A program made the position numbers and the translations under genes. A stretch of DNA of 40,792 bases from a virus, in IMG/VR virus record IMGVR_UViG_3300029231_000023, positions 1 to 40,792 of that record, one strand, 5' to 3'. Shown piece after piece: positions 9,311 to 39,471 of this stretch. The first letter of the stretch is position 1. Each line of letters starts with the position of its first letter. Below the pieces are notes generated by a model. The model was not told the origin of the DNA, searched no databases, and worked only from the letters and a program-made list of their open reading frames with translations.

Positions 9311-9383
9311 GTTGCTTTCGAGTATCGGCAATGGGGCCGACCATTTTCGTGAGGCCACGAAAAAGCTCTACGATGTGGAGTTG

Positions 9384-11291: not shown

Positions 11292-11347
11292 TCCTTTGAT
11301 GTGTCCAGTATGGGCTTTTTACTATTTTCCTGTGCCTCAGTTATGCA

Positions 11348-13951: not shown

Positions 13952-14383
13952 CTAATCGTCCGCCATTTTGATGTAGGTGGTGGTATCGCTGGAATAGCTG
14001 ATCGTCGGCAGCGTCGTGCCGCCGAGGACTGCATAAAGCGCCGGGTAGGACATACGCGAGAAGCGAGATCCGTCGCATTCATGCCATGGGGCAGAGAGAA
14101 TGCGGACGGTTGTGAGGATATCACCAACTTCCTTCGCTCCGGTCAGCTTGTCCAGCGCGTCGTTTACGGTCGGATTTGCAGGCTTCCCGCTCCCTGGCCA
14201 TATGATCTCCTCCGCTTCTCCCGATAATAGCGTTTCTTTGGTAAGTGGTGTCCCAGACTCCAATGGCTCATCCTCTGGGCGAATCCATTCTTCTCTGGTT
14301 GCAGTCACCCCCATGAGGACTCTTGTTGCTGAATAATATACTGCGCCGTTTTGCAGGACTTTCGTCGGTTTTCTGTCCTTCAC
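13952..14383 (-). CDS. Short tail-fibre paralog (shared N-terminus plus tail-collar-like segment only)
   Basis: MKDRKPTKVLQNGAVYY...GTPLTKETLLS...VGDILTT aligns with the N-terminal roughly 115 aa of 14387..15841. Confidence 0.6.
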   Translation of the reverse strand: MKDRKPTKVLQNGAVYYSATRVLMGVTATREEWIRPEDEPLESGTPLTKETLLSGEAEEIIWPGSGKPANPTVNDALDKLTGAKEVGDILTTVRILSAPWHECDGSRFSRMSYPALYAVLGGTTLPTISYSSDTTTYIKMADD

Positions 14384-14386
14384 GGG

Positions 14387-15841
14387 TTATTCCTCCAGCG
14401 CCTTGATGTATGCGTGGCTACGGCTATCTGGTATAATCGTTGGAACCGGTTTCGCTAAGTCGTTATAATTGCATATAGATATTGTTCCAGTTTTTGGCGG
14501 CTGTGCCGCTAAAGCGGCAGGTGATAATGCACCATCAAAGACACCACTAATTTTGTATACCTTATCTTCCGGATCGGAAACGCTGCAGATGTATCTAGTA
14601 CCGTCTATGGAGGCCGTAAATAGCAGTAAGCCTGACACAAACTCGAATCCAGACTGTGTGTATACATAGTCTGTTGAGCCTGTAGAGATTGCTTCCGCTC
14701 CAATGTGCCATGTTGTGCCATTATCAAGTGTGTAGGCGTACTTCAAGCCTTCATTTTGATATATCGCAATAATCGTACCTGTAGATGCACATATATACTT
14801 CCAAATAGCATAACCCTGTATGCCGCTTGGAACAGCAGCATCTGGAATTGTTCCAATTAGATCCTCCGAAGCGTTCGGGCTTAATTCTTCTGCCATGTAG
14901 ATATTTCGGTGATACGTCCAGCAAAACTGCCTTGAGGTCTCGTCGTAGCTTATTGCGTCTACAGAGTTATTTACGTTGTTCCACTTTCCCGAACTACTTG
15001 CGGTTATACGGTCTTCGTATACTACTCCACCAATGTAATTACTTGAAGAACTATTAGATCGAAAGCAGTACACATTGCCGCTACTCGAAGCAAATAGTTC
15101 TAATTTGTAAATATCATTGCCGCCGTTGTTCCATATCCAGTTGTTCTCCGATACGGTCTGAAGATCTTCCGAGATAGTATAGGACTCGCAGTGATTTTCC
15201 GTAGAGGTTGCTTCTACGATAGCCATACGGTAGACGCCTTTGAGCGGATTATAGCATACTGCAATATCTGCAATATGCTGACTGTCACCGAGCGTATAGC
15301 TAAACGGATAATCTACCCATACATCTGTATCACTCGATACATACATGTGCATTTTGGAATCGGACCGGTTGTAGGTGAAGGCAAACCACTTTCCATTTGC
15401 GTATCTTATGCTGCTTGTATCCTGATTGACCCCTGTTACAGGCTTGCTCGTCCATGGAGCCGGAGACGCCGCCGGCCGCAAGAGTTCAAACAGCTTCGGG
15501 TAGGCAGATCTTGTGATGGTTTGGCCATTGCATAAAAGCCACGCATCGGATGGTTTCGCTCTTACCGTCATAAGGATATCGCCAACTTTCGCGGTGCCTT
15601 TCTGCAATTCTGCAAGCGCCTCGCTGACCGTCGGGTCTTCCGGGCGGGTACTTGCGTTCGGCCAGATCTTGGCCGCGGTAGCATCGGAGAGTAAGTTTGC
15701 CTTATTGAGCGGCGTGCCCTCTTCGGTCGGGGCGTCGTCTCGCTTGAGATATTCGTAGTGATTCAGGGTTCCGTCGGCGTTATAAAAGCCGTACCGGATT
15801 GCGCCGTTGGATAAAACTTGTGTTGGCTGTCTATCTTTCAT
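14387..15841 (-). CDS. Tail fibre / receptor-binding protein: tail-collar-like region plus an AT-rich beta-propeller-like C-terminal domain
   Basis: ATG at 15841 (ATGA coupling). GDILMTVRAKPSDAWLLCNGQTITRSAYPKLFELL is collar-like. Asp-box-like YTLDNGTTW. Confidence 0.7.
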   Translation of the reverse strand: MKDRQPTQVLSNGAIRYGFYNADGTLNHYEYLKRDDAPTEEGTPLNKANLLSDATAAKIWPNASTRPEDPTVSEALAELQKGTAKVGDILMTVRAKPSDAWLLCNGQTITRSAYPKLFELLRPAASPAPWTSKPVTGVNQDTSSIRYANGKWFAFTYNRSDSKMHMYVSSDTDVWVDYPFSYTLGDSQHIADIAVCYNPLKGVYRMAIVEATSTENHCESYTISEDLQTVSENNWIWNNGGNDIYKLELFASSSGNVYCFRSNSSSSNYIGGVVYEDRITASSSGKWNNVNNSVDAISYDETSRQFCWTYHRNIYMAEELSPNASEDLIGTIPDAAVPSGIQGYAIWKYICASTGTIIAIYQNEGLKYAYTLDNGTTWHIGAEAISTGSTDYVYTQSGFEFVSGLLLFTASIDGTRYICSVSDPEDKVYKISGVFDGALSPAALAAQPPKTGTISICNYNDLAKPVPTIIPDSRSHAYIKALEE

Positions 15842-16329
15842 GTCAGAAGTCCTCCTGCGGCGCACTCCGCCGCGCCGGTGTGGCGGAATGCCTTTGTGAT
15901 GTTGTCGATCAGTTCCTCACAGAGCGCAAGAACGCGCTCGATATCATTTGCGCCGGTGTAGGCCATGCGGTTCAGCTCCGGCGCGTCCGGTGTTCCTTCG
16001 GGGTATGCCAGTGCGTCCCGGATGGACTGCACCTGCTTGCGGTATGCCTCGGCCTGTGATGCCGTTATAATGTCCGTTGCGGCCCAATCTGTTTTTGCGG
16101 ACCATGCGATACTCATGCCGCAGACCGGCGCAAGACGCGCCGCCAGATAGTTCATGGCGGTTCCCACGCGATTCATGTCGCTTGCGTTGTACGCGCCCTT
16201 CATCCCAGCCAGCCATTCCGCCTGCTCGGCTGCGGTCATGGCAGCAAAGCCCTTCGCGGCCAGCGCCTTGACGTGATCCACGTCCGCCTGCGTCCGGTCG
16301 GTGACGAGGGTGTCAATGATGGTACTCAT
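15838..16329 (-). CDS. Fibre-associated / upper baseplate protein
   Basis: 163 aa with the motif DRTQADVD...KGAYNASDMNRVG that I associate with Firmicute phage fibre modules. Position between the hub and the fibre genes. Confidence 0.45.
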   Translation of the reverse strand: MSTIIDTLVTDRTQADVDHVKALAAKGFAAMTAAEQAEWLAGMKGAYNASDMNRVGTAMNYLAARLAPVCGMSIAWSAKTDWAATDIITASQAEAYRKQVQSIRDALAYPEGTPDAPELNRMAYTGANDIERVLALCEELIDNITKAFRHTGAAECAAGGLLT

Positions 16330-17840
16330 GCGCCAACTCCTTTCGTTACGGCATAAATTCCGCCTCCGCTGAACGTCAGTTCCATACCGGTCTGCACAGC
16401 ATTTTCGTTTTGTGCGAATGCGTCGGAGATTTTGATGGTGTCGCCGGTTTCGAGCGCCGGATTGCCCCGGTTTTTCACGCTGTAGATCTTTCGGCGATTA
16501 TACTGCGCAAGCAGCCACGCGGCCACACTCTGATAGTTTGCAGGCGCTACGCACGGGTTATTTACGCTCTTGATGTTTTTGCCGCTCCCGGCGGTGATTA
16601 TCGTATCAATATTCGCGTAGTCGCTCTTAACGTGCAGCTCTACGCAATCAACCGCTTCCGATATGGACACACCGTCATAGTTATAAAGCTCATCCGGCGT
16701 TATTTCTCCCAATACTGCGCCTGCTGAAAGCTCCGCGATGTGCAGGTTTCCGGATCGATCAAACCACGCGGAGCACATTGCGGCCTGTGCCAGAATCCGG
16801 ATCGCCTCGCGTCTCGTCGTCTTCCGAGGGATTGCAGGGACTACCGTTCTTTCGTCTGCGCCGCCGCCGTAGATCACAGTGACGTCGTATCCTTCCAGTA
16901 CGGACGCAACTACAGTCTGGAGCTTGCACGCGGTAGCGTTTCCGGCCTCATAGGTTGCGCGATCGAGTGTCGCAGCCATATCGTTTCCGACAAGCTGTGC
17001 CGTAACGCCGGAATCGCGTGCTGTAACGGATGTAAAAAAGAACTCGCCAACGTCTATGCTCTCTCCGTTTACAATGCATCTGGCAAGCAATTTCTGGCCA
17101 TCCTGAATCACGGAGAAAACGCCGTCCGGGTTCAGAATGTTGTACCGATGATCCGCGTTGTCAAATGTAAAGGAAATCTGCCGGGACGGGAACGATTCGC
17201 AGGAAACGGATGCTTCCTCTATAATCTTCACGTCGGCCATTGTGTCGTTTTCGTAGGTTTCCGTCAGGCCGAAATCGATCTGCCGCAGCCGGGCGCGTGT
17301 CTTTGGCAGGAGCGTCTTGTCAAATCGAATCGTCAGCTTTGTGTAATTTGCGGCAGTCATGCTGATGTTCTGCCGCGCCTGCGTGATCATCTTTGTTCCG
17401 GTTGCGACCGCCGCTCCGTCGCTCGCATATGCGGTAATTGTGATCTGCGCCGGGTATTGGTTCATTTTTTCATCAAACAGCATCGCCCAACCAATCGTGG
17501 ATACCGGAGCGGAGAATTCAAACGTAATTATGCTTGCCATTTCGGCGCTCTCGTTTGATACTACTCCGCTCCACCAGCCTACATGCTGCCCGTCAAAGCT
17601 ATCGTTCGGAATATCGATTGTCCCATCCAGAACCCACCGGTTCAATTCAAGCCCAGCAAACTTCCCGGATATGGTTTCTCTGTCGCTGATCGTTTCGGCG
17701 GCGCTTGTGCCTGGTGCCGAATCAGATGCAGAGGCCGTACCGTTCTTCTTTGCCGACGGGTCAACAATGTAAAACCGGACAAGCATGCCGACCTCACGCA
17801 CCGGTGTAAACGGTGCGTAATTGCTCGATACCTTCTGCAT
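16326..17840 (-). CDS. Tail-tip / baseplate hub (Tal-like) protein
   Basis: About 504 aa. ATG at 17840 overlaps the upstream stop codon. Second gene after the tape measure. Confidence 0.5.
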   Translation of the reverse strand: MQKVSSNYAPFTPVREVGMLVRFYIVDPSAKKNGTASASDSAPGTSAAETISDRETISGKFAGLELNRWVLDGTIDIPNDSFDGQHVGWWSGVVSNESAEMASIITFEFSAPVSTIGWAMLFDEKMNQYPAQITITAYASDGAAVATGTKMITQARQNISMTAANYTKLTIRFDKTLLPKTRARLRQIDFGLTETYENDTMADVKIIEEASVSCESFPSRQISFTFDNADHRYNILNPDGVFSVIQDGQKLLARCIVNGESIDVGEFFFTSVTARDSGVTAQLVGNDMAATLDRATYEAGNATACKLQTVVASVLEGYDVTVIYGGGADERTVVPAIPRKTTRREAIRILAQAAMCSAWFDRSGNLHIAELSAGAVLGEITPDELYNYDGVSISEAVDCVELHVKSDYANIDTIITAGSGKNIKSVNNPCVAPANYQSVAAWLLAQYNRRKIYSVKNRGNPALETGDTIKISDAFAQNENAVQTGMELTFSGGGIYAVTKGVGA

Positions 17841-18220
17841 CAATCCACCCCTTGCTGTGTCGCGGAGATCGTGACGCCGCACCACTGCGATACGCCGTCC
17901 TCATCGTAGATGATCGCCTTGTATTCCGGCTGTTCAAAAAGGAAATCCCTTGTTTTGTCGCCGTCTACATCCGGGTATGTTACGCTCAACACATGTTTCG
18001 TGTTGATCATGCTGCGGAGTTTTCGGAGATCGGCGACAGAAAGCCAGCCCGTCGGGATTTTCAATTCATTTTTTACCCCGATGATATCCATAACCGTCTT
18101 TCCGGATGCCATTGTCGCGGTTGCGCCAATATCCTTCGGCTGAATCGTGAACACGAGATCGCGCAGAAGCGTGACCGTGTTTGTTCCGTCCGTGATTTTA
18201 ATCCTACGCAAGCGATACAC
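17840..18220 (-). CDS. Distal tail protein-like (short)
   Basis: 126 aa, immediately after the tape measure gene. Confidence 0.4.
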   Translation of the reverse strand: MYRLRRIKITDGTNTVTLLRDLVFTIQPKDIGATATMASGKTVMDIIGVKNELKIPTGWLSVADLRKLRSMINTKHVLSVTYPDVDGDKTRDFLFEQPEYKAIIYDEDGVSQWCGVTISATQQGVD

Positions 18221-22203: not shown

Positions 22204-22623
22204 TCAGATCTTCCTCCACTGGTTCATGCGCGATTTGAACGTCGTCTGCCATGTCACAGCCCCATTCGCGGAGGCACTTCCGCTCGATCCCTTCGAGTAG
22301 CTATAGCCTCCGAAGCTTTCCGAGGTAAACGGGCTTGCTGCCGCGTCCCCGTTTTTCTCCTGCCATGCTCTGATCTCAGCTTCGAGGGCGAGGACAGCGG
22401 ACGGGACGGCCATCGGCCAGACAGAGCCATCAAAGGTCTCGTCGGCCATCCCGTAATCCGGGTATTGGTGCACACCGTCATTAAAAACGGAACCTACAAT
22501 CCGGAAGAATTGCCCTTCTTGCAGGAACGGCAGCGCAATGCTGCCGTTTTCTACTGTGTACGTTCCGCTGATCCGATCCGTTTCAAACCAGTTCCGCAGA
22601 ACCCCGCACAATTCGGTTAGCAT
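22204..22623 (-). CDS. Head-tail connector (gp6/gp15-like)
   Basis: 139 aa, directly after the capsid gene. ESFGGYSYSK motif. Confidence 0.55.
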   Translation of the reverse strand: MLTELCGVLRNWFETDRISGTYTVENGSIALPFLQEGQFFRIVGSVFNDGVHQYPDYGMADETFDGSVWPMAVPSAVLALEAEIRAWQEKNGDAAASPFTSESFGGYSYSKGSSGSASANGAVTWQTTFKSRMNQWRKI

Positions 22624-22638
22624 TGCGCTGCCGCCTCC

Positions 22639-23802
22639 TTACTTTGCCGTTACCGTTGCGTTGCCAGCCTTCTGCGCTTTGTAAGTCGCGTCAGCCTCAA
22701 CGACTGTGATCTTCTTGCCCGTCGCTGCCGTGACATCGGACTTGCCGTCCCACGTCGGCCACGTTCTGACGTTCTGGCCGTAGGTGACAGTCTCAGCCGA
22801 ATCGCCTACCTTGTACTTGTAGACGTTGCCGCTTGCTTCCTTCGCGGGCGTTACCGTGATCTTCGTGTCACCTGTCGCCGTGCCCGCCGCAGAGGTAACC
22901 GTCAGCGTGCCGAGCGACGGGGTCTCGTCAATGTCAGCAACGGCAATGCCGTCCTGATACTCCGCGAACAGGGTCATGCCCATGATCGCAAAGGACTCGG
23001 AGACCGCAGTGGAGTAGTTGCCCTGCACATGGAAACCGACAAGGTTGGTTTCTCCGTCGGTTCTGTAGTCGAGACCGGCACGGGCGAAATCGCTGTCAGC
23101 TGGGTCAATGTAGTACAGGACAATGTTCTCGACCGGAGTCGCAATAACACGACCGCGTTTGATCTCATCGTCAGACAGCAGGAACACGGTGCTATAGCCC
23201 ATGAAGTTCTTGATGTACTGGAAGCCGAATTCAGTCTGGATGGTGATATCGGCGCCGCCGAGGTAATCGTACAGATCCATCACGTTCACGAAGCCAACAA
23301 CGTTGGTCGCGGTGCGGTGCATCTGCTTGAACTTGTTGATAACAGCGCCCTTCGCCATTGCAAGCGCGCGCTGCCAGTTGGTTTCGCTGACGGTCAGCAG
23401 GCCGGTATTCAGATAATCGTAGAAACGATTGGTGACATTGGTCTGCAGCTCATACAGGAAAGCTTCGTCGGTCATTGCGACGGCAACGTCATAGCCGTAT
23501 TCCTTGATCGCCTCGATGGAAACAGCCTTTGCGTACTTCTCGACGTTGATGTTGGCGTAGTCCTTTTCAATGACAGTCGCTTTGGAATAGGGGATCTCTT
23601 CGCCCTCGCCGACGCTCTGCGCGAGCGTCACGCTTGCAGTCTTGGATTTCAGGACGGTTCCCGGCTGCTTTTTGATGGGGCGCATAATGCCTAGAATGTC
23701 GCGCAGGTGCTGCCAGTTCCGCGCAAAGCGGGTTACAAAATCGATTTCACGAGCGGTTACCTGAACGTCGCTCGTCATCGTCAGATTGGTCTTTGCTGCC
23801 AT
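22639..23802 (-). CDS. Major capsid protein with a C-terminal Ig-like extension
   Basis: 387 aa, following the scaffold gene. The C-terminal roughly 90 aa are T/V/A-rich and beta-like (LTVTSAAGTATGDTKITVTPA...). Confidence 0.8.
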   Translation of the reverse strand: MAAKTNLTMTSDVQVTAREIDFVTRFARNWQHLRDILGIMRPIKKQPGTVLKSKTASVTLAQSVGEGEEIPYSKATVIEKDYANINVEKYAKAVSIEAIKEYGYDVAVAMTDEAFLYELQTNVTNRFYDYLNTGLLTVSETNWQRALAMAKGAVINKFKQMHRTATNVVGFVNVMDLYDYLGGADITIQTEFGFQYIKNFMGYSTVFLLSDDEIKRGRVIATPVENIVLYYIDPADSDFARAGLDYRTDGETNLVGFHVQGNYSTAVSESFAIMGMTLFAEYQDGIAVADIDETPSLGTLTVTSAAGTATGDTKITVTPAKEASGNVYKYKVGDSAETVTYGQNVRTWPTWDGKSDVTAATGKKITVVEADATYKAQKAGNATVTAK

Positions 23803-23804
23803 GT

Positions 23805-24395
23805 TTATTCTTCCTTTCCGAACAAATTGAGATTTGCGGCAATTGCTGCCTGCCGTTCAGACGCGTCCCTGATTTTGAAGATGTCGTCCCGGCTCATAGC
23901 GCCGCCGTTGTTTGCGGGCGGGTCTTTGGTGTCCGCGCCCTTCTGTTTCGTGGTAACAACGAAATCTGCCCACTCTTCCTTGATGGACTTCTTCAAATCA
24001 TCGGCATTCTTGATCTTGCCGTCTTCCAATTCAATCGAAGAAAGATCGGTGACCTTCAAAACCGAATCAATTCGTTTTTCGCTGATACCCACAGACTTCA
24101 AAAGTTCCCGATACGCGGATTCTTTCGCGCTCTTGGTTTCCTTCTGCATCTGCTCTCTTTTGTAGTCGTCAAATTCCTTTTTGATCTTGTCGTGCTTATC
24201 CTTCCAGCCATCGTCGCCTTTGGCTTTCAGGTTTTCAAGCTCCGCCTGTACTCCGGGGAGCTTTTCGGCGTCTGCCTTATACCGTGCAAGGTCGCTTTTC
24301 AGCCCGTCTACGGTATCGGTGTGCGCCTCAATGATCGTATCCATCTGCTCTTCTGTCAGCCCCATTCCCTTCAGGAGCTTGCGCGTCAGTGCCAT
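23805..24395 (-). CDS. Scaffolding protein
   Basis: 196 aa, highly charged coiled coil, immediately upstream of the capsid gene. Confidence 0.8.
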   Translation of the reverse strand: MALTRKLLKGMGLTEEQMDTIIEAHTDTVDGLKSDLARYKADAEKLPGVQAELENLKAKGDDGWKDKHDKIKKEFDDYKREQMQKETKSAKESAYRELLKSVGISEKRIDSVLKVTDLSSIELEDGKIKNADDLKKSIKEEWADFVVTTKQKGADTKDPPANNGGAMSRDDIFKIRDASERQAAIAANLNLFGKEE

Positions 24396-24442
24396 GTTCT
24401 ATCTTCCTTTCCCTTGTCGGCGGTGCTTTGCCGCGACAGAAC

Positions 24443-24478
24443 AAAAAATGTGGCAACAGTCATTTCTTTGCTGTTACC
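24443..24478 (-). terminator. Intrinsic terminator-like hairpin between the gp10-like and scaffold genes
   Basis: On the minus strand: GGTAACAG-11 nt-CTGTTGCC followed by ACATTTTTTGTT. Confidence 0.6.
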
Positions 24479-24498
24479 ACACTTATACCGTATATTTA

Positions 24499-24513
24499 TG
24501 GCTCTGGGACGCA
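24499..24513 (-). promoter_or_regulatory. Conserved 15-nt box, copy 1 (TGCGTCCCAGAGCCA on the minus strand)
   Basis: Identical 15-mer at 32822-32836. Both copies lie a few nt after a stop codon, and each is followed by TATAAG and a hairpin. Confidence 0.6.
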
Positions 24514-24517
24514 ATCT

Positions 24518-24916
24518 TTATCCGTTTTTCATCTCATCTTCGACGATTTTCAGGTACTGCGCCGCATAGTTCGCCGCCGCTGGCTTCAAATACGGCTGTG
24601 CTTTGTTTCCAGCCGTCCAGTGCCAGTTCCCCTTCGCGTCCTGATACGCCCACGGCGTATGTCTCCCGCCCGGATAATACTTTCCGGTTCCGAGTTCGAC
24701 GTATGCGGCATATTCCGTGTCACTTCCGATGTATGCAGCCGGTTCCCCTTCATCTACGCGGTGCGTGATGCTGTTGCGTAGGTTTCCGGTATCAACCGGG
24801 CATAGCCGCTTCGCGTACTTTTCCGCCGTCATGCCGATCTTTTCAAGCGCACGAAGCAGCACGTTTTTCATATTGTCCTTGATTTCCTCTGAGTTGTCGA
24901 TAAATTTAACGTCCAT
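24518..24916 (-). CDS. HK97 gp10-family protein
   Basis: CPVDTGNLRNSI...YAAYVELGT motifs. The likely start is ATG 24916 (MDVKFIDNSEEI). Confidence 0.7.
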   Translation of the reverse strand: MDVKFIDNSEEIKDNMKNVLLRALEKIGMTAEKYAKRLCPVDTGNLRNSITHRVDEGEPAAYIGSDTEYAAYVELGTGKYYPGGRHTPWAYQDAKGNWHWTAGNKAQPYLKPAAANYAAQYLKIVEDEMKNG

Positions 24917-25904
24917 TTTTCTTTTTCCACCCTGCCCATTCGGCATAGCTCATGTTCTCGATCAGCTCATTCCGTCCGGTCGCCTGGTTCCTGGCGCGGC
25001 GCTTGCCTCCGGAGGTGTCGATTCCTTCGATCTCGGATACCAGCGTGCAGCGGCAGTTATAGATTTCGGACGGTGGGCCGTTCGGGTCACCTGGGTAGCG
25101 GCAGCCGTTGGAGAACTTTTTGTCGTTGTCCACGATCTCGCCGTCGAGCATGGCGTGGGAGTGGCGGGTTCTTCCGTCGAGCGTCGCCATCCATTGTTTC
25201 CTGCACTTGATTCCCATTTTCTCAGCGGCATAATAAGAATCCAGCCGTCCGGCGTTCTGCGCGCCCGTGACTGCCGTTCGAGCTGTCCGGATAGCGGAAT
25301 CGCGGTTCATGGTGGTGATACGACTTTGCAGATCATCTGCCATGCCCTTGAGGCTCCGGCCCTGCAAGATGGAGCTGGTGACACTGGCGGTTATCTGCTT
25401 TTTCCCGTATGCAAGATCAATCCCACGTTTGAGTGCTCGCTTCTCCGGGTAGGACGGCATAAGGCCCGGCTGCTCGGCAATCAGGCGCTTCACAACCCGC
25501 TCATCCCAGAGATCGAATCCAACGTCCCCCACCACCTGCTCGATCATATAGGCTGCTAGGTTCCTGTTCAGGCTGTAAATCCCCGGCGTTGCGTCGTTGA
25601 TATAGGCGATTGCGGTTGCGTTTGCATTCGTCATTCGCTCTGCGACTTTATCCCTTAGCGCTTCAAACCGCTTCCCGCGTCCAATCTGAGCAGCACGCCA
25701 CAGCTTGTATTGATCCTCCGAGATCTCCCCAGCGTCCAGCCGCGCCTTTTCCACCGCGTCACGCGCTGCAAATTTACCGAAGTAATCCCTGATCGTATCC
25801 GTCAGATCGTTATACGCTTCCCTATATATCGCAGCAATCCGCTTTTCAAGCTTTGCGAGCTCTGCGTCTGTCATTTTCTGCCCGGCGGTGTTGCTTGTGC
25901 TCAT
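24906..25904 (-). CDS. Head morphogenesis protein (Mu F / SPP1 gp7-like)
   Basis: TLDGRTRHSHAMLDG and NCRCT motifs. 332 aa. Confidence 0.85.
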   Translation of the reverse strand: MSTSNTAGQKMTDAELAKLEKRIAAIYREAYNDLTDTIRDYFGKFAARDAVEKARLDAGEISEDQYKLWRAAQIGRGKRFEALRDKVAERMTNANATAIAYINDATPGIYSLNRNLAAYMIEQVVGDVGFDLWDERVVKRLIAEQPGLMPSYPEKRALKRGIDLAYGKKQITASVTSSILQGRSLKGMADDLQSRITTMNRDSAIRTARTAVTGAQNAGRLDSYYAAEKMGIKCRKQWMATLDGRTRHSHAMLDGEIVDNDKKFSNGCRYPGDPNGPPSEIYNCRCTLVSEIEGIDTSGGKRRARNQATGRNELIENMSYAEWAGWKKKNGR

Positions 25905-25969
25905 ACGCTTTTATCCGCCCCGCCGAGCACGGCGCAGACGAGGGTAACGATGATGGTCTTGGTGTCCAT
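25901..25969 (-). pseudogene. 22-codon remnant of the 5' end of the 13576..13920-type gene
   Basis: MDTKTIIVTLVCAVLGGADKSV*. About 42 of the first 48 nt are identical to 13920-13873. It retains an RBS and an ATGA overlap with the MuF-like gene. Confidence 0.6.
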
Positions 25970-25998
25970 GGTGTTCTCCCTTTTCCGGTTTTCGGCGT

Positions 25999-26817
25999 TC
26001 ACATCGCAACGATGTAACTCGCATAATCCTTCCATCCGTCGGCAGCTTTATACGCCGCGACCGATGCAGCCGGGACTTTGATGGTAAATCCCGCTGTGCT
26101 CGAGCGGAACACGCTACTTCCGAGTGTTGGAGGCGTTGCAGCCAAGCATGTAACCGATGCAAGTTGCCTACAGTAGCCGAAAGCCCTGTCCCCGATCTCT
26201 GTTACCGTATCCGGTATAGTGATCTGCTTAATCATTGCACTCATAAAGCACCGGTTTTCTATCTTGGTGAGATTTTGTGGCAGGATGATATTGATTGGCA
26301 GTTCTTCATCCGTTGCATTATTGTAGACTGGCCGAACATCTTCAAACGCACTAGTTGGAAGCACTGTCACAAGTGGCGGAACTGTCAGCGTTGCGATGGC
26401 TGCACCACTAAAGCATGCATCCCATAACTCACTGATCGTATTTGGCAGAACCAGCCCGTGTACCAATGCCTGGTTAAACGCCATTGATTCTATTACCGTG
26501 ATGTTATTTGAAGCATCACTACAGTCAAGGTTTTGTAGTCGGCGCTGCCCTGCGAACTCATACGCGTAGATTGCCGTGTGGTTATAGAGTTTTGCGCGCT
26601 TGATATAGTGGCCTGGGTTGCCGCTTGTGATATCCCCCATCGCAATATACTCTGCTTCCATGTACGGTGTAGTCGGTGCGGATTTTATTCCGCTGATCGC
26701 GCCTGCAATCCCTTCGATGGTCTGTGCCGCTGGGGCTGTGCCGCCTTTGGCCTCCACTGCGTCATACGCCGCGCCGACTGCCGTGATAATGCGGTCGATT
26801 TCTGTCTGTACGCTCAT
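25999..26817 (-). CDS. BspA-type leucine-rich-repeat protein with a fibre-like N-terminus
   Basis: ITIPDTVTEIGDRAFGYCRQLASV...TPPTLGSSVF...IKVPAASVAAYKAADGWKDY. The N-terminal MSVQTEIDRI resembles the MSTQTEITRL of the neighbouring gene. Confidence 0.7.
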   Translation of the reverse strand: MSVQTEIDRIITAVGAAYDAVEAKGGTAPAAQTIEGIAGAISGIKSAPTTPYMEAEYIAMGDITSGNPGHYIKRAKLYNHTAIYAYEFAGQRRLQNLDCSDASNNITVIESMAFNQALVHGLVLPNTISELWDACFSGAAIATLTVPPLVTVLPTSAFEDVRPVYNNATDEELPINIILPQNLTKIENRCFMSAMIKQITIPDTVTEIGDRAFGYCRQLASVTCLAATPPTLGSSVFRSSTAGFTIKVPAASVAAYKAADGWKDYASYIVAM

Positions 26818-26830
26818 GTCTGTTCCTCCT

Positions 26831-27712
26831 TTAAATCGCGGCGAGAGCCGTTTCGATCGCGTCTGTCAGCGATACCGTGCCGCCGGAGGTGTATCCCGCC
26901 GGGATATCGGCGCTGGTCTGCGTGAGGCCGTCGATGGTCTTTGCGATCGCGCCGTTGTTGGCCATGGTGCCCTCGACCTTGCTGCCGTCGGCCAGCACGA
27001 TAAACTTTCCGTCCAGCACGTCAGCAGCTCCGGCAGTCACGCCGGAAACGTCCTTGTATTTGTCCGGGATCGCGCCGACCGTGACCTTGCCGAGGACTTT
27101 GCCCTTGGTGGGCGTGATGTCCTGCGCGGCCTCGGTAGGCGTGGCGGACTTGGTTTCCAGCATGATAGATACCTTGCCCGTGCCGGAGTGCTTACCGGCG
27201 GGGACAGTGTACTCCTGATTGCCGGTCGTCGCGTCCAGCACTTTCTCCACTGCACCGTTGTCCGGCATGGTGCCAGCCTGCGTTACGCCGTCCGCGTCGA
27301 TAAATACTTTATTCGCCAGCACGTCGCCGGGCGCGGCGGTCGTGGCGGAGACGTCCTGATAGTTTTCCGGGATCGCGCCGACGGTCACACCGGACAGGCC
27401 GTAATAGCCCTGATCTGGTGTGACGGACTGCTGCTCCTTCGTCGGCGTGACGGATTTGGCCTGCAGGTTGTAGTTGCCGCCGCCGGAGACGCCCTTGACC
27501 GTGCCGGAGCCGTTGTGATAGCCCGCGGGGATGGTGTAGGACTCGCCCTCCTTGACATTGGCGTCAACCGCGCCCTGATTTTTGATGGCGGCAGCCTTGT
27601 CGGTCAGCGCGTCGAGTTTGTCCGTGCTCGCGGCGAGGCCGAGGCCGACGAGCCATGTGCGCAGCTTGTTCCGCGCGGTCTGCAATCTGGTAATTTCGGT
27701 TTGTGTGCTCAT
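26831..27712 (-). CDS. Fibre-like protein with roughly 100-aa internal repeats
   Basis: Two and a half repeats containing IPAGYHNGSGTV / VPAGKHSGTGKV / IPAGYTSGGTV and VTVGAIPENYQDVS / VTVGAIPDKYKDVS. Confidence 0.6.
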   Translation of the reverse strand: MSTQTEITRLQTARNKLRTWLVGLGLAASTDKLDALTDKAAAIKNQGAVDANVKEGESYTIPAGYHNGSGTVKGVSGGGNYNLQAKSVTPTKEQQSVTPDQGYYGLSGVTVGAIPENYQDVSATTAAPGDVLANKVFIDADGVTQAGTMPDNGAVEKVLDATTGNQEYTVPAGKHSGTGKVSIMLETKSATPTEAAQDITPTKGKVLGKVTVGAIPDKYKDVSGVTAGAADVLDGKFIVLADGSKVEGTMANNGAIAKTIDGLTQTSADIPAGYTSGGTVSLTDAIETALAAI

Positions 27713-27724
27713 AAAATCACTCCT

Positions 27725-27973
27725 TTAGATTGTCGCCAGCAGGGCGTTGATGTTGCCGACCTCCGCATACACGGCGGCGGACGTTACGGGCTTGGTGTTG
27801 TCCTTTTCGACTGCGTCCGCCGTATCGACGGACAGGGTGTTGGTTTCCGCGTCCAGCTTCAGGCCGGAGCCGATGTTGTAGCCGCCGGAGCCGCCGTCAG
27901 CACGCACGGAAACGTTAAAGGAAACGTCGATCGGATCGCGGTTCTTGAGTTCAAATTCAATGCCGCCCATCAC
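27725..27973 (-). CDS. Small fibre-like protein
   Basis: NTLSVDTADAVEKDNTKPVTSAAVYAEVGNINALLATI, a motif I associate with phage fibre stems. Confidence 0.5.
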   Translation of the reverse strand: MMGGIEFELKNRDPIDVSFNVSVRADGGSGGYNIGSGLKLDAETNTLSVDTADAVEKDNTKPVTSAAVYAEVGNINALLATI

Positions 27974-28275
27974 AACACCGCCTTTGAAAGCGCGTGCGCA
28001 ACGTCGATCTGCTTGATCTCCGAGCCAATCACGTCACCGCTCTTGAATTTCACGCGCACCTGCATCTGGCAGAGCTTCGGGAGCCGAAAGGTCTCCTGCT
28101 GGGTGAGGGGAATGTGGAACTTTCCATCCGAGTATTCCGCTTCCCCCGGATAAATTTTTTTGAAATTGAATAAAGTGAACTCAACCGCCTTGACATCCGC
28201 AATATTGATGGGGGAACCGTTGTTTTTGATCGTAACATCGAGGCTGTACGCATCACCCTGTACCATACTGCTCAT
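27970..28275 (-). CDS. Small beta-rich structural-looking protein
   Basis: 101 aa (QGDAYSLDVTI...LTQQETFRL...VRVKF), directly after the portal gene. Confidence 0.45.
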   Translation of the reverse strand: MSSMVQGDAYSLDVTIKNNGSPINIADVKAVEFTLFNFKKIYPGEAEYSDGKFHIPLTQQETFRLPKLCQMQVRVKFKSGDVIGSEIKQIDVAHALSKAVL

Positions 28276-28279
28276 ACGT

Positions 28280-29626
28280 CTATCCCTCCATATCTTTCGT
28301 GGAATATCGCTCTAATTCTTCCGCGCTTTTCCTCTTCAAAATGTTTGCGATTTCCTCCTGTGTAAGCCACGGCAGCTTGCTCAGAATCGTTTCGTCGTCA
28401 AGGTAGCTCGCGGCAAGCAGCACCATTTGCGTCTGTTCTAACTGATTTGTTATTTTGGATCGCATAAAGGACGGCTCGTCATCAATACCAACGATCTTAA
28501 ACAATGCCTGCAGGAACTCGATCACGCAGTATTCAAATTGATCCACCTTGTTATCCATCGGCTGATACGCCGCCATGATCTCCGTCGCCGTCTTCTGCCC
28601 CGCCTGCATTTTTGTCACATCAAGCATTTGCGCGTCACGGTAAAGATCGTCGCTGATTCTGGAAAGAAGCGCTTCCCGAGCTTCAACTGGGATTGTGAGC
28701 GTATGAGCCTCTGCCTTCGCACCGTCATCGTCCACAAGACCTACACCAATTCTCCGCATGGACTCTTTGAATCGTGCCATATCGATCTCGTCCATTCCGC
28801 CAGCGTTCGAGATCGTCCAGTAAATGATTGACGCCTCATCAACTGTATTCGCAAAGCCTGACTTAATGAGATCGTAGCAGTCTATCGCCTCGCGTTGGCC
28901 GACAAGCTCTGACTGCCTTGCGCGGTTGCCGTAGAGCGGAATAATCGGGAAGCCGGGATAGTTTTGATATGCAAGGATCTCCGTACCGTCCGCTTCGGAA
29001 CTTGCCTCGACAGATACATATCCGCGCTTTGCCTCTAGGATCTCCATGTTTTTTCCGCTTCTGCGGATGAACTGCGTAAAGCCGTCCGGCTCGTAGAGTG
29101 CTGCGCGAAGCGGCTTTGTATCAGATACCTGCCAGAATCTAATCCCGGAGCGCAACGCACCGTTTTCCTCATCGAGAAGCGGAACGAACTCTGTTACATC
29201 GAAAACCTCAAGATGATCAAGGTTCCAGAAGCCATACGATACGCCTCCAACAAGCGCCGCATGCGCTGCGTCCTGCAGCCGAACGTCGAACGATGTGCCG
29301 AGTTTTTCTTTGTTCGCGGCTTCTTTCAGCGTCACACCGTTTCCGAGCAGATACTGCGTTTCCTGCGTGATGAAATTTGCAAAGAAATTGCTCCGAAGCT
29401 TATAGTTCGGACTGTAGTTGTCCGGAATGACTTTCCCGTTGAGTGTATAAAGCAGCTTTTGAAAATTAGCAATCGTCACATTCCTGTGCGCGTCATACTC
29501 CTTCGCAATAACCGCCTGTTTGTATAAATCCGAGTCTTTGTGATTATTTATCGCGGACAGAACAAATTCCATCCGTTCCCGGTCAGACTTTTCCGCGACC
29601 TCTAAAAAATCTTGATATGTTTTCAT
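28280..29626 (-). CDS. Portal protein (SPP1 gp6-like)
   Basis: 448 aa, immediately after TerL. Confidence 0.8.
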   Translation of the reverse strand: MKTYQDFLEVAEKSDRERMEFVLSAINNHKDSDLYKQAVIAKEYDAHRNVTIANFQKLLYTLNGKVIPDNYSPNYKLRSNFFANFITQETQYLLGNGVTLKEAANKEKLGTSFDVRLQDAAHAALVGGVSYGFWNLDHLEVFDVTEFVPLLDEENGALRSGIRFWQVSDTKPLRAALYEPDGFTQFIRRSGKNMEILEAKRGYVSVEASSEADGTEILAYQNYPGFPIIPLYGNRARQSELVGQREAIDCYDLIKSGFANTVDEASIIYWTISNAGGMDEIDMARFKESMRRIGVGLVDDDGAKAEAHTLTIPVEAREALLSRISDDLYRDAQMLDVTKMQAGQKTATEIMAAYQPMDNKVDQFEYCVIEFLQALFKIVGIDDEPSFMRSKITNQLEQTQMVLLAASYLDDETILSKLPWLTQEEIANILKRKSAEELERYSTKDMEG

Positions 29627-29634
29627 CTTTTACC

Positions 29635-30903
29635 TCACCGCGCCAGCTCCGGCACAAATCTGTGTTCTTTGAAGTGCTTTTTCAAGACCGTCATCACCAT
29701 GTACCTGATTTCGTCCATAGCGTGGTCGTTTTCCTTCACGACGCGGTCAGATTCTGCTTTTTCGTCCCACCTGTAAAGCCCGAATTCGCGGATGGCGTCC
29801 TCGCAGCTCTCATGGATTTTGACCTTCCCGGACGCGATCATCTCAGCCGTTGTCTGTATGCCGGGCAGTACATCATTCACAGCCCCGCGAACTTTGAACT
29901 CATGGTGCTTCTTTACGGTGGCAATGAAAGCGTCCGCAGACGGGTCTACAATCAGACATTTTATATCTCTCCCACCCGCAAGACGCTTTACCTCTGAATA
30001 ATACTCTTCTGGCGTTTTTTCTTTCCGTTCTTCTCGCCCGCAGTAATAATACTCTCCAATGCGCACCGCTTCTGTTTTCGTCACGCACCACAAGCCAGCC
30101 GAAAACGGATTGTGCGTGCCGTAGTCAATGGAAATGTAATAATCGCCGGTGTCCGGTGTGTCCTGCACGATGCAGGAATCGCCAAACATCGGATACACAA
30201 GCCCTTCCGCAATGCAGCGCTCACCGAGGATATCCCGTCGATACCAGATGCTTTTTATATCATACTGGCTTTCGATTTCCGCAAGCCTTTGGGCTGTAAT
30301 CGTTGCGTTGTCCCGGATAGTAAAGTGCCGGTAATTATACCGCGCTCCAAATTGTTCCGGGAATCGGTCTATGTAATTCTGGTAAATCCAGTGTCCAGGC
30401 GACGAAGGGTTTAAATCCCAAAAAACACGTCGAAGTTTTGCGGCAAGCTGTCGATTGAATGCCTCCTTGATCGTATCCTCATGGTGAAGGTTGATCTCGG
30501 TTGCTATCCACATCCCATAGGAGTTGCCGCGAATCTTCTTGAAGCTGTCCGCTTTCGCGCCGCCCGCGAATATCACGACGTAATCCCGCTTATGTGAGCG
30601 GATAACCAGTGCTTCATTTCCCTTATACTTCGTCCACCGGCAGCGGCCACGGAAAAGATACTCCAATCCGTAGCCGTTCGCGTCCCCGATGTTCAGTTTC
30701 GCGTTTGCCGCTGTGGAACCTGTCGCAAGGTGGATGCGGTCAGGCGTCCCTTTCTCGATCAAATAGGCAAATGCCGCAATGTTGTCGATGGTCTTACCGG
30801 CACGGACAGCGCCCTCCGCTACGGAAATCGTCGCCCGCGTCGCCGCCGCGATATATGCCTTATGCTTCTCGCCGAACTTCGGTTGAAGGGTCTGCGTAAT
30901 CAT
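29635..30903 (-). CDS. terL: Terminase large subunit (PBSX/Terminase_3-like)
   Basis: Walker A GAVRAGKT. 422 aa. It follows TerS with an ATGA-type overlap. Confidence 0.9.
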   Translation of the reverse strand: MITQTLQPKFGEKHKAYIAAATRATISVAEGAVRAGKTIDNIAAFAYLIEKGTPDRIHLATGSTAANAKLNIGDANGYGLEYLFRGRCRWTKYKGNEALVIRSHKRDYVVIFAGGAKADSFKKIRGNSYGMWIATEINLHHEDTIKEAFNRQLAAKLRRVFWDLNPSSPGHWIYQNYIDRFPEQFGARYNYRHFTIRDNATITAQRLAEIESQYDIKSIWYRRDILGERCIAEGLVYPMFGDSCIVQDTPDTGDYYISIDYGTHNPFSAGLWCVTKTEAVRIGEYYYCGREERKEKTPEEYYSEVKRLAGGRDIKCLIVDPSADAFIATVKKHHEFKVRGAVNDVLPGIQTTAEMIASGKVKIHESCEDAIREFGLYRWDEKAESDRVVKENDHAMDEIRYMVMTVLKKHFKEHRFVPELAR

Positions 30904-31238
30904 TCCATACCAGCTTCCGCCAGATACGCGGAAGTGTCCTCCATGTCAACCGATTCCTCCGGGTTGTCCTTCTGGCCGAGATACTGCTTCCCGAGCCAGA
31001 TTGCCATGTTTGCATTTTTCTCCGCTAATTTCCACTGGTTCCGCCTAAGAGATATTTTCCCCGCTCCTCGCTTTTGCTTAAAAACTTCGGAGAAATTTTC
31101 TCCATATGTGCGTTTACACCAAGCATTTAGTGTTTTATCTGTGACGTCGAACCAGCCGCAGATTTCCTCAAGCGTGCATTGCAGGCCGCATAGATTCTCG
31201 AACTGCTTTTGATCTATTTCCTTTTTCAGCCTTGCCAT
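30900..31238 (-). CDS. terS: Terminase small subunit
   Basis: KQFENLCGLQCTLEEICGWFDVTDKTLNAWCKR (HTH) and SLRRNQWKLAEKNANMAIWLGKQYLGQ. GGAGG RBS. Confidence 0.8.
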   Translation of the reverse strand: MARLKKEIDQKQFENLCGLQCTLEEICGWFDVTDKTLNAWCKRTYGENFSEVFKQKRGAGKISLRRNQWKLAEKNANMAIWLGKQYLGQKDNPEESVDMEDTSAYLAEAGME

Positions 31239-31333
31239 ATACGCCCTCCTTCCTTCGCTGGTGTTTGATGAGCTTCTCCATGTCCCGCTTTAAGTGCGGG
31301 CTGTCTGTTTTGGCAATGATCGCCTGTGCTTCT

Positions 31334-32626
31334 TCAATCGTCATTTCCCAAGCCTCGCACGATTGTCCATTCCCGCTCCGACAACTCCCAAATATCCGTG
31401 TTGACCTTGTCCGCAGCAGCCTTGTCCGCAGCAGCCTTTTCCGCAGCAGCCTTTTCCGCAGCAGCCTTTTCCGCAGCAGCCTTTTCCGCAGCAGCCTTTT
31501 CCGCAGCAGCCTTTTCCGCAGCAGCCTTTTCAGATAGCAAAAAGCCGGAGCCGAACAATCCTTTCCCCGACGCTTTCTGTGCGTCAAGCGCGCGGATAAA
31601 ATGTGCATCTCTTCCGCTAATTTCAAGGCTTACGCCGTGAGCTGCCATATAACACAGCATTGTTGCTGTCAAAACCTCGTCTGGATATGAGTATTTTGGC
31701 AGTTCTCTGTGCAACTTTTTGAGATTCTTTTTGTTCTCGCCATCCAGTATTTCTCTTAAATCAGCGGCAGCAACAATCTTATTGCCCCCCATGTTGGTAA
31801 CAAACGACGTATTGACAGACGCGCCATTTTCATACACAACTCCGCACCCGCACGCCACATAGTTTGCCGAGCCGCGCATAATTCCGAGAAGCGTAAGCGT
31901 TGGAGCAAACAGAAAGAAGTTGATTCTCTTGCTTGTGTACCACTCGCAGATTTCTGAAATAATGGAAAAAGGCGGATTGTCTATCACAACACACCCGAAA
32001 GGGTATTTCTCGCTTTTATAATCTCCGCCCGGATAAAACGGGCGCACAATCGCAGCACTGCCAATTTCGTACTTCTCCGCCACCCAATCTCTTACTGCGT
32101 CGTAGATGTTATCCGGCGTGTAGCAATCGTCCGTTTTTTTCTTCGCTTCAAACTTTTTCAGAAACTCTTGATATTCTTCATCATCGTCCGAAAGTTCCCC
32201 GCGCTCCATGCGTTCTCTAAATTCCTGTTCGCGGTCTTCGTTAGTAAGTTCCGTTTCGTCGGTATCTTGGAAATCCCAGTCAAAGTCAAACGCCGACAGG
32301 TCAAGACCAGGCAGTTCATCAGCCAGCAGGTCAAAGTCCCAATCGCTCTCGTTGCTCTTGTTATCCACCAGGCGAAGGGCGTTCACCTGCTCCGGTGTCA
32401 GATCGTCCACGCAGACGCAAGGCACTTCTTCCATGCCCAGTTTCTTTGCCGCTAGAGCGCGGCAGTGGCCGATTACAATCACACCGTCACGATCGATCAC
32501 AATCGGCTGCACAAATCCATACTGCTTGATGCTCTCCGCAACGTTGTTGATTTGTGTCTTGTCATGCTTCTTTGCATTTTTCCCGTATGCAGTAATGCTG
32601 GAAAGCTTTCTGTTTTTTACCTCCAT
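31334..32626 (-). CDS. ParB-N-domain / DNA methyltransferase fusion with a (KAAAE)n C-terminal linker
   Basis: ATG at 32626 after GGGGAGG. ParB-like VIVIGHCRALAAKKLG. MTase motif IV VIDNPPFS. Eight KAAA[E/D] units near the C-terminus. Confidence 0.65.
   Translation of the reverse strand: MEVKNRKLSSITAYGKNAKKHDKTQINNVAESIKQYGFVQPIVIDRDGVIVIGHCRALAAKKLGMEEVPCVCVDDLTPEQVNALRLVDNKSNESDWDFDLLADELPGLDLSAFDFDWDFQDTDETELTNEDREQEFRERMERGELSDDDEEYQEFLKKFEAKKKTDDCYTPDNIYDAVRDWVAEKYEIGSAAIVRPFYPGGDYKSEKYPFGCVVIDNPPFSIISEICEWYTSKRINFFLFAPTLTLLGIMRGSANYVACGCGVVYENGASVNTSFVTNMGGNKIVAAADLREILDGENKKNLKKLHRELPKYSYPDEVLTATMLCYMAAHGVSLEISGRDAHFIRALDAQKASGKGLFGSGFLLSEKAAAEKAAAEKAAAEKAAAEKAAAEKAAAEKAAADKAAADKVNTDIWELSEREWTIVRGLGNDD
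31405..31530. repeat. 15-bp tandem repeat, about 8 units, coding
   Basis: ccttgtccgcagcag x2, then ccttttccgcagcag x6. Confidence 0.9.
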
Positions 32627-32675
32627 GTTGTCCTCCCCATCATGCCCGATCACCGGTCAGCCACCTCATTTTTTC

Positions 32676-39015: not shown

Positions 39016-39471
39016 TCAGAACGGAAGCTCGTTTTCGTCGCCGATCTCCATCTGCGGCATATCCGGCGAAGAGAACGGAACCGGCGTTGTGCTCGGCAGC
39101 GGCCTGAACTCCGAAGAGGCCGGTGCAGCGGCAGAAGCATTCTGCCCGTCCCGCTTGCTGTCGCCGAAATAAACGCTTTCTGCGACGATCTCCGCCGTCT
39201 TGCGCTTGTTTCCGTCCTTATCTTCCCAGTTGCGGATCTGCAAACGGCCAGACACGACGGCCATGCGGCCCTTGGAGAAATACTTGCTGACAAAATCAGC
39301 TGTATTCCGCCATGCGACAACATCAATAAAATCCGTTTCCTTCTCCGCGCCCTGCGCCGCGAAATCGCGGTCGCAGGCAAGCGTGAAGGATGCAACAGAT
39401 TTTCCGCTTTGCGTCTGCCGAAGCTCCGGGTCACGGGTCAGACGGCCCATCATAACGATTTTATTCAGCAT
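39016..39471 (-). CDS. ssb: Single-stranded DNA-binding protein
   Basis: Internal ATG at 39471: MLNKIVMMGRLTRDPELRQTQSGKSVASFTLA. Acidic tail DENELPF. Confidence 0.9.
   Translation of the reverse strand: MLNKIVMMGRLTRDPELRQTQSGKSVASFTLACDRDFAAQGAEKETDFIDVVAWRNTADFVSKYFSKGRMAVVSGRLQIRNWEDKDGNKRKTAEIVAESVYFGDSKRDGQNASAAAPASSEFRPLPSTTPVPFSSPDMPQMEIGDENELPF

Follow-up and report, generated by a model that had tools for sequence, protein, structure and literature searches.

The DNA studied here is the viral record IMGVR_UViG_3300029231_000023 of the IMG/VR database, a stretch of 40,792 nucleotides (nt) that is referred to as the window below. All genes from the terminase through the lysis genes are carried by its minus strand. 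The portal gene (28280-29626, 448 amino acids (aa); PF05133 SPP1_portal, E=4.8e-32; phrog_64) and the MuF-like head morphogenesis gene (24906-25904; PF04233, E=5.6e-19) are separated in the window by a block of four genes and a very short open reading frame (ORF). In the order in which they are read on the minus strand, these are p101 (27970-28275), p82 (27725-27973), p293 (26831-27712), p272 (25999-26817) and an ORF of 22 codons (25901-25969, MDTKTIIVTLVCAVLGGADKSV). A preliminary description of this DNA had listed the same genes and the ORF, and all of them are present. It had also called the block a fibre or adhesin cassette with a recombination scar, and comparison with the loci of other phages bears out both parts. 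We consider that the block is probably a portable tail-type host-adhesion cassette, which would have moved from the junction of tail-fibre and lysis genes to the junction of portal and MuF.

The genes of the cassette overlap or are separated by spacers, which measure 4-29 nt. The stop codon of the portal gene lies 4 nt ahead of the start of p101, the GTG start of p82 overlaps the stop of p101 (GTGA), and the TGA of the 22-codon ORF overlaps the ATG of MuF. A terminator-like site was not found on the coding strand inside the block, nor was a promoter or terminator of its own found for the cassette on this strand. Because of the short spacers and the lack of a coding-strand terminator, the cassette genes would be transcribed and translated together with the late head operon. 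The G+C content is 0.61 at window positions 27001-28000 and 0.50-0.57 in the flanking kilobases, so that the interior of the cassette is compositionally distinct from the head genes.

The product of the first gene, p101, is the putative anchor. It had been described as a small beta-rich protein, and its AlphaFold2 model is a confident immunoglobulin (Ig)-like beta-sandwich (pLDDT 86). Nearly all of its 87 homologues are stand-alone proteins of ~100 aa. With the BppU_N profile (PF10651), p101 reaches 13.5 bits (E=0.06), which is below the gathering cut-off of 23.1. One homologue is labelled 'BppU domain protein' by its source, and the matches in BFVD include a few entries named 'BppU N-terminal domain' or 'baseplate component' (E ~0.02-0.06). 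A profile search of the PDB sequences with p101 and p293 gave nothing meaningful. As a separate possibility, p101 and p82 were considered as a split form of the fused BppU-like proteins of two other loci (L006, L008). This idea was dropped because an hhalign comparison of the p101 alignment with the N-domains of these proteins and with family C25 of locus L001 showed no similarity.

The second protein, p82, is the putative stem and gave nothing usable in searches of Pfam and PHROGs. It is built from a conserved N-terminal part of ~25 aa (MMGGIEFELKNRDP.DVSFNVSVRA), a GGSGG hinge and a swappable connector with the end ..GNINALLATI; the protein ends ..TSAAVYAEVGNINALLATI. The N-terminal 25 aa are constant among cassettes and the C-terminal part varies. 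In the window, the latter shares 61% identity with the end of a protein of 217 aa from a tail locus of MT835625. The third protein, p293, matches no Pfam family and only an unnamed PHROG (phrog_13589). The ~100-aa internal repeats that had been reported for it are readily recovered: residues 84-183 and 186-282 align over 100 aa with 47% identity (E=8e-26), and residues 39-72 form part of a third copy. This gives 2.3 copies, the full ones being encoded at 27164-27463 and 26867-27157. The family is large (at least 7996 matches at E<=1e-5) and falls into length classes of 293, 394 and ~495-503 aa (proteins P0088-P0207), corresponding to 2.3, 3.3 and 4.3 repeats. Lengths that differ by whole repeats are as expected for a shaft of adjustable length. 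The fourth protein, p272, is a BspA-type leucine-rich-repeat (LRR) protein, as previously proposed: it matches LRR_5 (PF13306) with 74.6 bits at a cut-off of 27.7, and its sequence matches the solved BspA-like LRR structures 4gt6 (E=4.8e-23), 4fdw and 4fd0.

The ends of these proteins appear to be matched to each other. The N-termini of p293 (MSTQTEITRL) and p272 (MSVQTEIDRI) are identical at 9 of 13 residues, a score reached by 2 of 2000 shuffles, which confirms the common N-terminal module noticed earlier. An end of the ..ALLATI/..ALAAI type is borne by both p82 and p293 (..IETALAAI) and is absent from p272. In all cassettes (~50 gene pairs), products with this end are always followed by products with an MS[TVI]Q.EI.R start. 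Other pairings follow other rules: an ..ANGGSF end precedes MAEYLTNT.., and a ..TLYL[LVI][ER]G end precedes MASFFNL, MAYNSQ or MDYLTN. In the LRR family C17, the N-terminus changes with the upstream partner. The co-variation of the C- and N-termini of adjacent products suggests cognate docking in gene order. The common N-terminus had first been taken to mean alternative tips on one base; the pairing of ends and starts instead suggests that a serial chain of anchor, stem, shaft and tip is more likely. The device would be assembled in the order of its genes, from the Ig-like anchor p101 through the stem p82 and the repeat shaft p293 to the LRR tip, and each C-terminal ..LA(A/T)I helix would dock the MS.QTEI.R N-terminus of the next protein.

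In three other loci (L014, L016 and L019, at about 10654-11394), an in-frame deletion joins the first 25 residues of p82 to the repeats of p293 at the glycine hinge. The window has a corresponding 21-nt microhomology, 27473-27493 with 27875-27895 (86% identity). The GGSGG hinge thus seems to be a further point of exchange.

The site between portal and MuF was compared among relatives. Both domains of an SPP1-like head module (SPP1_portal and Phage_Mu_F) are present in the window, and their adjacency is broken there. The two genes are adjacent in Dulem virus 33, Flavonifractor phage Chenonceau and Butyrivibrio phage Ceridwen. Scanning IMG/VR with the portal gave 224 relatives, the best 80 of which were examined (portal identity 84-100%). 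In 33 of these 80, portal and MuF are at most 44 bp apart, in agreement with the earlier assumption that they are normally neighbours. The other 47 carry a cassette at this site, always with p101 as its first gene directly after the portal gene. In the 42 of these 47 loci that reach MuF, the gap measures 2.3-4.4 kb and holds ~20 different gene contents. Constant among them are p101, the ~25 N-terminal residues of the second product and the 22-codon ORF. The interior varies and consists of p293-type shafts, of an Ig-like pair (families C12 + C13) or of C18 + C19; the tips carry LRR_5 or DUF6273 domains, and small CBM_5_12 proteins also occur. Families C4, C7, C8, C11, C16, C21 and C22 were left out as wrong-frame calls of the greedy ORF caller. 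A constant N-terminal part combined with variable distal modules, here LRR_5, DUF6273 and CBM_5_12, recalls the neck passage and collar-whisker structures with their variable carbohydrate-binding modules. With 47 of 80 relatives carrying cassettes of ~20 gene contents between constant flanks, the single insertion event that had been envisaged cannot account for the locus.

A transposon-type insertion was rejected, as there are no flanking inverted or direct repeats and no target-site duplication. Neither Pfam nor PHROGs revealed a recombinase domain in any cassette protein. An exact comparison with an empty site gave no result because portal and MuF have diverged at their facing ends in the relatives without a cassette, where the last 8 residues of portal and the first 7 of MuF differ.

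The cassette genes have their counterparts in tail loci. In the window, the genes for the tail tip, a Dit-like protein of 126 aa (17840-18220) and a Tal protein of 519 aa (16326-17885), are followed by a resident tail-fibre set, here called B (13952-16329, with Pfam Collar matches), that comprises f163 (15838-16329), f492 with a Collar domain (14387-15865) and f143 (13952-14383). The first gene after the tail fibres is m114 (13576-13920, 114 aa with a hydrophobic N-terminus), which precedes m85, holin and endolysin genes; Holin_LLH and an endolysin-like domain were recognized among its neighbours. The gene f143 is a truncated paralogue of f492; the first 126 aa of the two products are 44% identical and their C-terminal ends resemble each other, as if the pair represented two tips, or one tip and a remnant.

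An m114-based scan gave 419 viral contigs with m114 relatives, of which 80 loci were examined; in total, the comparison drew on ~300 related loci. In the m114-anchored loci, the whole cassette is found either between Tal and f163 or directly before m114. The former arrangement is that of a large set of phages, termed group 2, which has a different Tal (24% identity to the window Tal) and the gene order Tal, p101 and the rest of the cassette, f163, f492, f143, m114, m85, holin and endolysin. The capsid, neck, tube, tape-measure and Dit proteins of group 2 have no detectable similarity to those of the window. Their tail cassettes, however, match the window cassette with 76% identity for p101, up to 94% for p82 and 94-98% for p293; families C12/C13, C3, C10 and C5/C14 also occur there. 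Cassettes that end straight at m114 were found in L150 (..p293, then LRR), L169 (..C5) and L107 (..C24). Homologues of p272 directly precede m114 in L150 and precede f163 in L113 and L163. Further p293 homologues lie in true tail loci of MT835625, where they follow a Tal-like protein and a BppU-like one with a C-terminus matching p82, and of Dulem virus 35, where they lie between minor tail proteins and lysis genes. The claim that the cassette is of tail-locus origin is thus supported by the presence of the same genes in the tail clusters of other siphophages of gut Clostridia.

In the window lineage itself, the tail region runs from Tal519 to f163, f492, f143 and m114 without a cassette. Nine contigs of this lineage could be matched by name between head and tail regions, and all nine have the cassette at the portal site. 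The relatives without a cassette at this site have head, neck and tube proteins that are 82-98% identical to those of the window, together with a different Tal and a Dit with FN3-type insertions. They carry an analogous cassette directly before m114, as their only fibre set after Tal. There is one such cassette per genome in our sample, at one of two kinds of site. A megablast search of GenBank phages with window positions 22600-31300 yielded a single partial relative, MT835551 (L325; coverage 14%), which has a different 3.6-kb cassette with an LRR protein between portal and MuF. This phage has the tail-tip type of the cassette-less relatives, and its Tal leads almost directly to the m85-like, holin and lysin genes (reverse complement, ~7500-10800). 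Its tail locus thus contains neither a cassette nor m114; its sole cassette is the one between portal and MuF, which lacks the remnant of m114 described below. Possible hosts suggested by the genome scan were uncultured Clostridia metagenome-assembled genomes only. In Dulem virus 36 (PP511521.1, 1-10209; L005), a block with a p293 homologue (61% identity), 'tail proteins', holin and cell-wall hydrolase lies between the terminase and portal genes; the terminase annotation is split by a gene for an endonuclease. This phage adds a third kind of displaced block of fibre and lysis genes.

The right-hand boundary of the cassette retains a trace of this tail context. Positions 25922-25969, within the 22-codon ORF, match the 5' end of m114 (13873-13920) at 42 of 48 nt. 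The formal alignment gives exactly the count that had been made by eye and is significant (blastn, E=1e-9). It is the sole significant similarity of the cassette to another part of the window, the next best having E=0.22. In 10 tail loci of other phages, m114 has alleles that agree with the remnant at 48 of 48 nt and then diverge abruptly. The earlier proposal that the cassette was copied from a fibre locus therefore holds for a tail locus as the source, and not for the locus of the same genome, as its own m114 is the poorer match. The similarity is not limited to the ORF. When the cassettes were compared by blastn with 105 tail-locus junctions of the type 'last fibre gene, then m114', the last ~150 nt of the cassette and the 48 nt of the ORF formed contiguous alignments of 160-199 nt, mostly at 94-98% identity (range ~88-99%). 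Such long alignments arise wherever the terminal gene of the cassette has a tail-locus counterpart directly before m114 (L150, L169, L107), and every one of them ends at nt 48 of m114. The junction of the window is 95.7% identical over 188 nt to the LRR-m114 junction of L150.

An alignment of the final 190 nt preceding MuF was made for 43 cassettes. In these, six kinds of terminal gene run into the 22-codon ORF and meet there. Its ribosome-binding site and first four codons vary with the upstream gene (MDTK, MDDA, MNAK, METK, MDSK, MS--), and the sequences are alike from ACCATCATCGT onward. The polymorphisms of the remnant (V/A at two positions, D/E, T/S; METK, MDSK, LACAALG) mirror those among the m114 genes. 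Changes beyond nt 48 and in codons 2-4 are largely non-synonymous (residues 17-22 and codons 2-4; G/E/K, K/R and S/N), and there is no sign of selection on the 22-aa peptide.

An alternative to a recombination scar is that the ORF is a functional gene for a small membrane peptide, or that its similarity to m114 arose by chance or by mis-assembly across a repeat. The ORF is intact, has a good ribosome-binding site, a conserved position and a predicted hydrophobic helix, and its stop overlaps the MuF start, all of which would suit a peptide gene. We nevertheless regard this alternative as very improbable. The similarity is one of nucleotides, reaches 48 of 48 and stops abruptly at nt 48; the non-coding sequence upstream and the end of the preceding gene are co-linear with tail junctions; and the residues at both ends of the peptide vary non-synonymously. 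An assembly artefact is excluded, since 47 contigs from at least 10 metagenomes share both junctions. The ORF would at most couple translation into MuF. We therefore keep to the recombination scar, which seems to be both the ancestral breakpoint of the lineage and a right-hand recombination arm that has been reused. The relocated copy of the cassette would have taken the first 48 nt of m114 along.

Repeated use of this arm is suggested by a short coding motif that is found at both sites. The junction core ACCATCATCGTNACNCTCGTC, which encodes TIIVTLV, begins whichever gene comes after the cassette, be it f163, m114 or the remnant. In ~108 of 110 loci in which a cassette precedes f163, the 5' end of f163 is the leader ATGGACACCAAGACCATCATCGTNACNCTCGTC (MDTKTIIVTLV). 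In the 22 loci in which f163 directly follows Tal, the window among them, it starts with ATGAGYACNATCAT.. (MSTII..); the f163 5' end of the window (16303-16329, ATGAGTACCATCATTGACACCCTCGTC) carries the junction core. The first codons and the ribosome-binding site of f163 thus go with the upstream gene, as they do in the remnant.

At the left-hand side, the constant flank opposite the 48-nt fragment of m114 is made up of p101 and the ~25 codons with which the gene after it begins. A scar of the Tal gene was not found at the left junction, where p101 is homologous to the tail copy from about codon 4. The identity between the window cassette and the tail cassette of L113 increases, ~150 nt into p101, from 51-57% to 90-100%, and the p101 alleles are themselves mosaic. 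The left recombination arm of the cassette is apparently p101. The types of p101 allele and portal allele do not co-vary, so that they do not hint at a docking partner for p101. Taken over all loci, the comparison shows that the interiors of the cassettes have apparently been replaced many times between constant flanks, by cassettes that are also present in tail loci, and that the right-hand crossovers seem to fall within the m114 fragment.

The exchange would proceed through recombination at short homologies, either in the course of a co-infection or with a prophage. The phage encodes a single-strand-annealing recombinase of the ERF family (39461-40084, minus strand; PF04404, E=1.6e-41) that may catalyse it, since Rad52-like recombinases of temperate phages recombine short or diverged homologies (PMC3945230). 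A more far-reaching version appears rather unlikely to us. The TIIVTLV junction and p101 would form a standing 'landing pad', with the cassette as a plug-in unit before any of three unrelated genes at two distant sites; the locus in the head block would be kept exchanging with the tail loci of unrelated gut phages, perhaps by an ERF recombinase tuned to the junction, and the relocation might have brought a new virion address, namely a neck collar of BspA-type LRR adhesins.

The position of the device in the virion can be approached through the genes with which the anchor co-occurs. In group 2, p101 accompanies unrelated head, neck, tube and tape-measure proteins together with a related Tal and the B set. 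It is missing from the relatives that share the head, neck and tube of the window and have another Dit and Tal, and the tip type with Dit126 and Tal519 co-occurs with the p101 anchor. The type of anchor thus tracks the type of tail tip and not that of head or neck, which favours the tail tip. We regard a location at the tail tip as probable, a neck collar as possible and clearly less likely, and capsid decoration and cargo outside the virion as improbable. At the tail tip, the device would most likely serve as an accessory or primary receptor-binding apparatus, and its swapping would change the host range.

Several points weigh against this assignment. The four best solved-structure matches of the p101 model are Ig-like collar proteins of the phages Sf14 (9c39 I, J) and Bas63 (9mt4 G, H), with TM scores of 0.58-0.61 and weak E-values of 0.009-0.04 (Foldseek), and BppU of TP901-1 is absent from the top 50 PDB matches. 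In the window, p101 comes after portal and not directly after Tal, where a BppU protein would be expected; its group-2 homologue does come after Tal. The two p101 proteins are only 76% identical between these contexts and the Tal proteins only 24%, so that a common docking partner is at most presumed. In lactococcal phages, an anchor of the BppU_N type forms the neck passage structure, although its gene in TP901-1 is found where the tail module ends (PMC4493119, PMC6669499), and the position of a gene in relatives is thus weak evidence for the location of its product. The AlphaFold2 monomer model of p293 is poor (pLDDT 61, pTM 0.33). Repeated re-insertion, instead of exchange at the site itself, could account in part for the constant flanks and variable interior. 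Finally, the location of the products in the virion, their expression and their binding are all deduced from the comparison of sequences.

Some of these points lead to a different location with the same origin and exchange of the cassette. In this alternative, p101 forms a ring around the head-tail connector, and stem, shaft and LRR protein are the whiskers of a neck collar that aid reversible adhesion. Besides the structure matches, it could draw on the collar domain of Bas63 and of podophage GP4, which holds a 'rope' that strings fibre subunits (PMC12609058) and resembles p101 with the N-terminus of p82. The lactococcal neck passage structure, which is non-essential and sits at the portal, likewise has an N-terminus of the BppU_N fold and variable carbohydrate-binding tips, and in the window lineage the cassette directly adjoins the portal gene. 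On the other hand, the Foldseek values are weak for a very common fold. A 76% identical p101 is found in phages whose neck, portal-side and tube proteins have no detectable similarity to those of the window, and relatives with the same neck but another Dit and Tal have no p101. In the cassette-less relatives, moreover, the equivalent cassette is the only fibre set after Tal, which fits a primary tail-tip device better than an optional collar. We therefore take a collar to be possible, though on the unlikely side.

The same co-occurrence bears on head fibres or capsid decoration, which had been put forward before. The genes lie within the head-gene block, are probably co-expressed with it, and encode an anchor with an Ig-like fold. 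Phages with unrelated capsids, however, have the same cassette in their tail clusters, p101 is missing from relatives whose major capsid protein is 98% identical, and the distal modules bear domains of tail tips and tail fibres (Phage_tail_C, DUF6273, CBM_5_12). With the anchor following the tail-tip module and not the head or neck module, we consider decoration of the head hardly likely. We judge equally improbable that the block is a 'moron', that is, cargo outside the virion such as a surface adhesin of lysogenic conversion. BspA-like LRR proteins are bacterial surface proteins, the LRR_5 domain of p272 is closest to cell-surface proteins of gut bacteria, and the locus is hypervariable. In the translations, no signal peptide or anchor-like feature was noted (this was not formally predicted), and the block has no promoter or terminator of its own on the coding strand. 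It is tightly packed with overlapping stop and start codons within a late operon, always accompanies an anchor and stem of virion type, and lies in tail clusters elsewhere.

Separate fibre proteins that are joined non-covalently by short conserved terminal modules are a feature of the anchor-branch systems of Klebsiella phage depolymerases and of T4 gp34-37. In anchor-branch systems, the tips can be swapped horizontally and the docking peptide is kept. The window device differs from them in its protein families, and its rule, ..LA(A/T)I followed by MS.QTEI.R, is deduced from gene-order co-variation only.

The BppU/BppL baseplate of TP901-1 and Tuc2009 and the neck passage structure of 936 and P335 phages are similar in having a small N-terminal beta-sandwich anchor, a stem and swappable distal modules, including carbohydrate-binding ones (PMC6669499, PMC4493119). 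In these lactococcal devices, the N-terminal part is also constant and the distal parts vary across relatives, and the anchor fold serves at both baseplate and neck. Unlike them, the window device has anchor, stem, shaft and tip on separate polypeptides instead of one long protein, its anchor stays below the BppU_N threshold (13.5 vs 23.1 bits), its tips are of the BspA-type LRR_5 or DUF6273 kind, and its cassette, placed between portal and MuF, has retained part of a lysis-side gene. The collar and whiskers of the Ounavirinae Sf14 and Bas63, and GP4 with its fibre-tail adaptor, rope and Fiber-1, have an Ig-like ring protein that holds an extended segment for the assembly of fibres, and the collar proteins are the best solved-structure matches of p101. 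They belong to phages of Gram-negative hosts, however, and have no sequence similarity; the match is weak (E ~0.01), and the co-occurrence data of the window point to the tail tip. Mosaic-boundary or 'linker' sequences and relaxed homologous recombination (PMC3945230, PMC2327257) resemble the junctions described here in their short conserved border stretches and in the phage-encoded annealing recombinase, here ERF. Unlike known linkers, the boundary in the window is the coding 5' end of a gene, with which three unrelated ORFs begin (m114, f163 and the remnant), and it links two distant sites, the head block and the tail block.

Modular receptor-binding devices, mosaic exchange at short boundaries, annealing recombinases and the LRR_5, DUF6273 and CBM_5_12 domains are thus well known. 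What is unusual is that a whole lineage, and also a second one (MT835551), carries an entire tail-type adhesion cassette at the portal-MuF site. It is also unusual that a 48-nt fragment of a lysis-side gene seems to have been kept as the right arm, with the displaced locus apparently exchanging with the canonical tail loci of unrelated phages, and that one coding junction motif starts three unrelated ORFs. The phages of gut Clostridia are mostly uncultured and their host range is poorly understood. The locus shows, at base-pair resolution, how a whole receptor-binding apparatus may be exchanged between phages with unrelated virion cores, and a conserved junction of 48 nt (in places ~20-33 nt) seems sufficient for a displaced locus to go on taking part in the exchange. 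An annotation pipeline that searches for receptor-binding proteins solely downstream of Tal would overlook the adhesion genes in this case. A design rule for host-range engineering in these phages might be drawn from the constant anchor, the hinge and the matching C- and N-terminal motifs, and the BspA-type LRR and CBM tips point to cell-surface proteins or glycans as receptors.

Three minor features of the window were also noted. A 27-bp tandem array with the unit TGGCGGAGTCGCCCGAGCTGCCGATCT is present at both ends, at 1-150 (5.6 copies) and at 40539-40792 (9.4 copies), and the window thus looks like a complete circular or terminally redundant genome of ~40.5 kb that was cut within a tandem repeat. 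A 15-bp tandem repeat (8.5 copies, 99% identity) at 31405-31531 lies within the gene 31334-32653 and encodes an (AAEKA)n stretch in a protein with a ParB_N domain. After the lysis genes, the region 9384-10902 encodes two low-complexity proteins, one of 255 aa rich in Gly, Asn and Cys and one of 158 aa rich in Gln and Pro.

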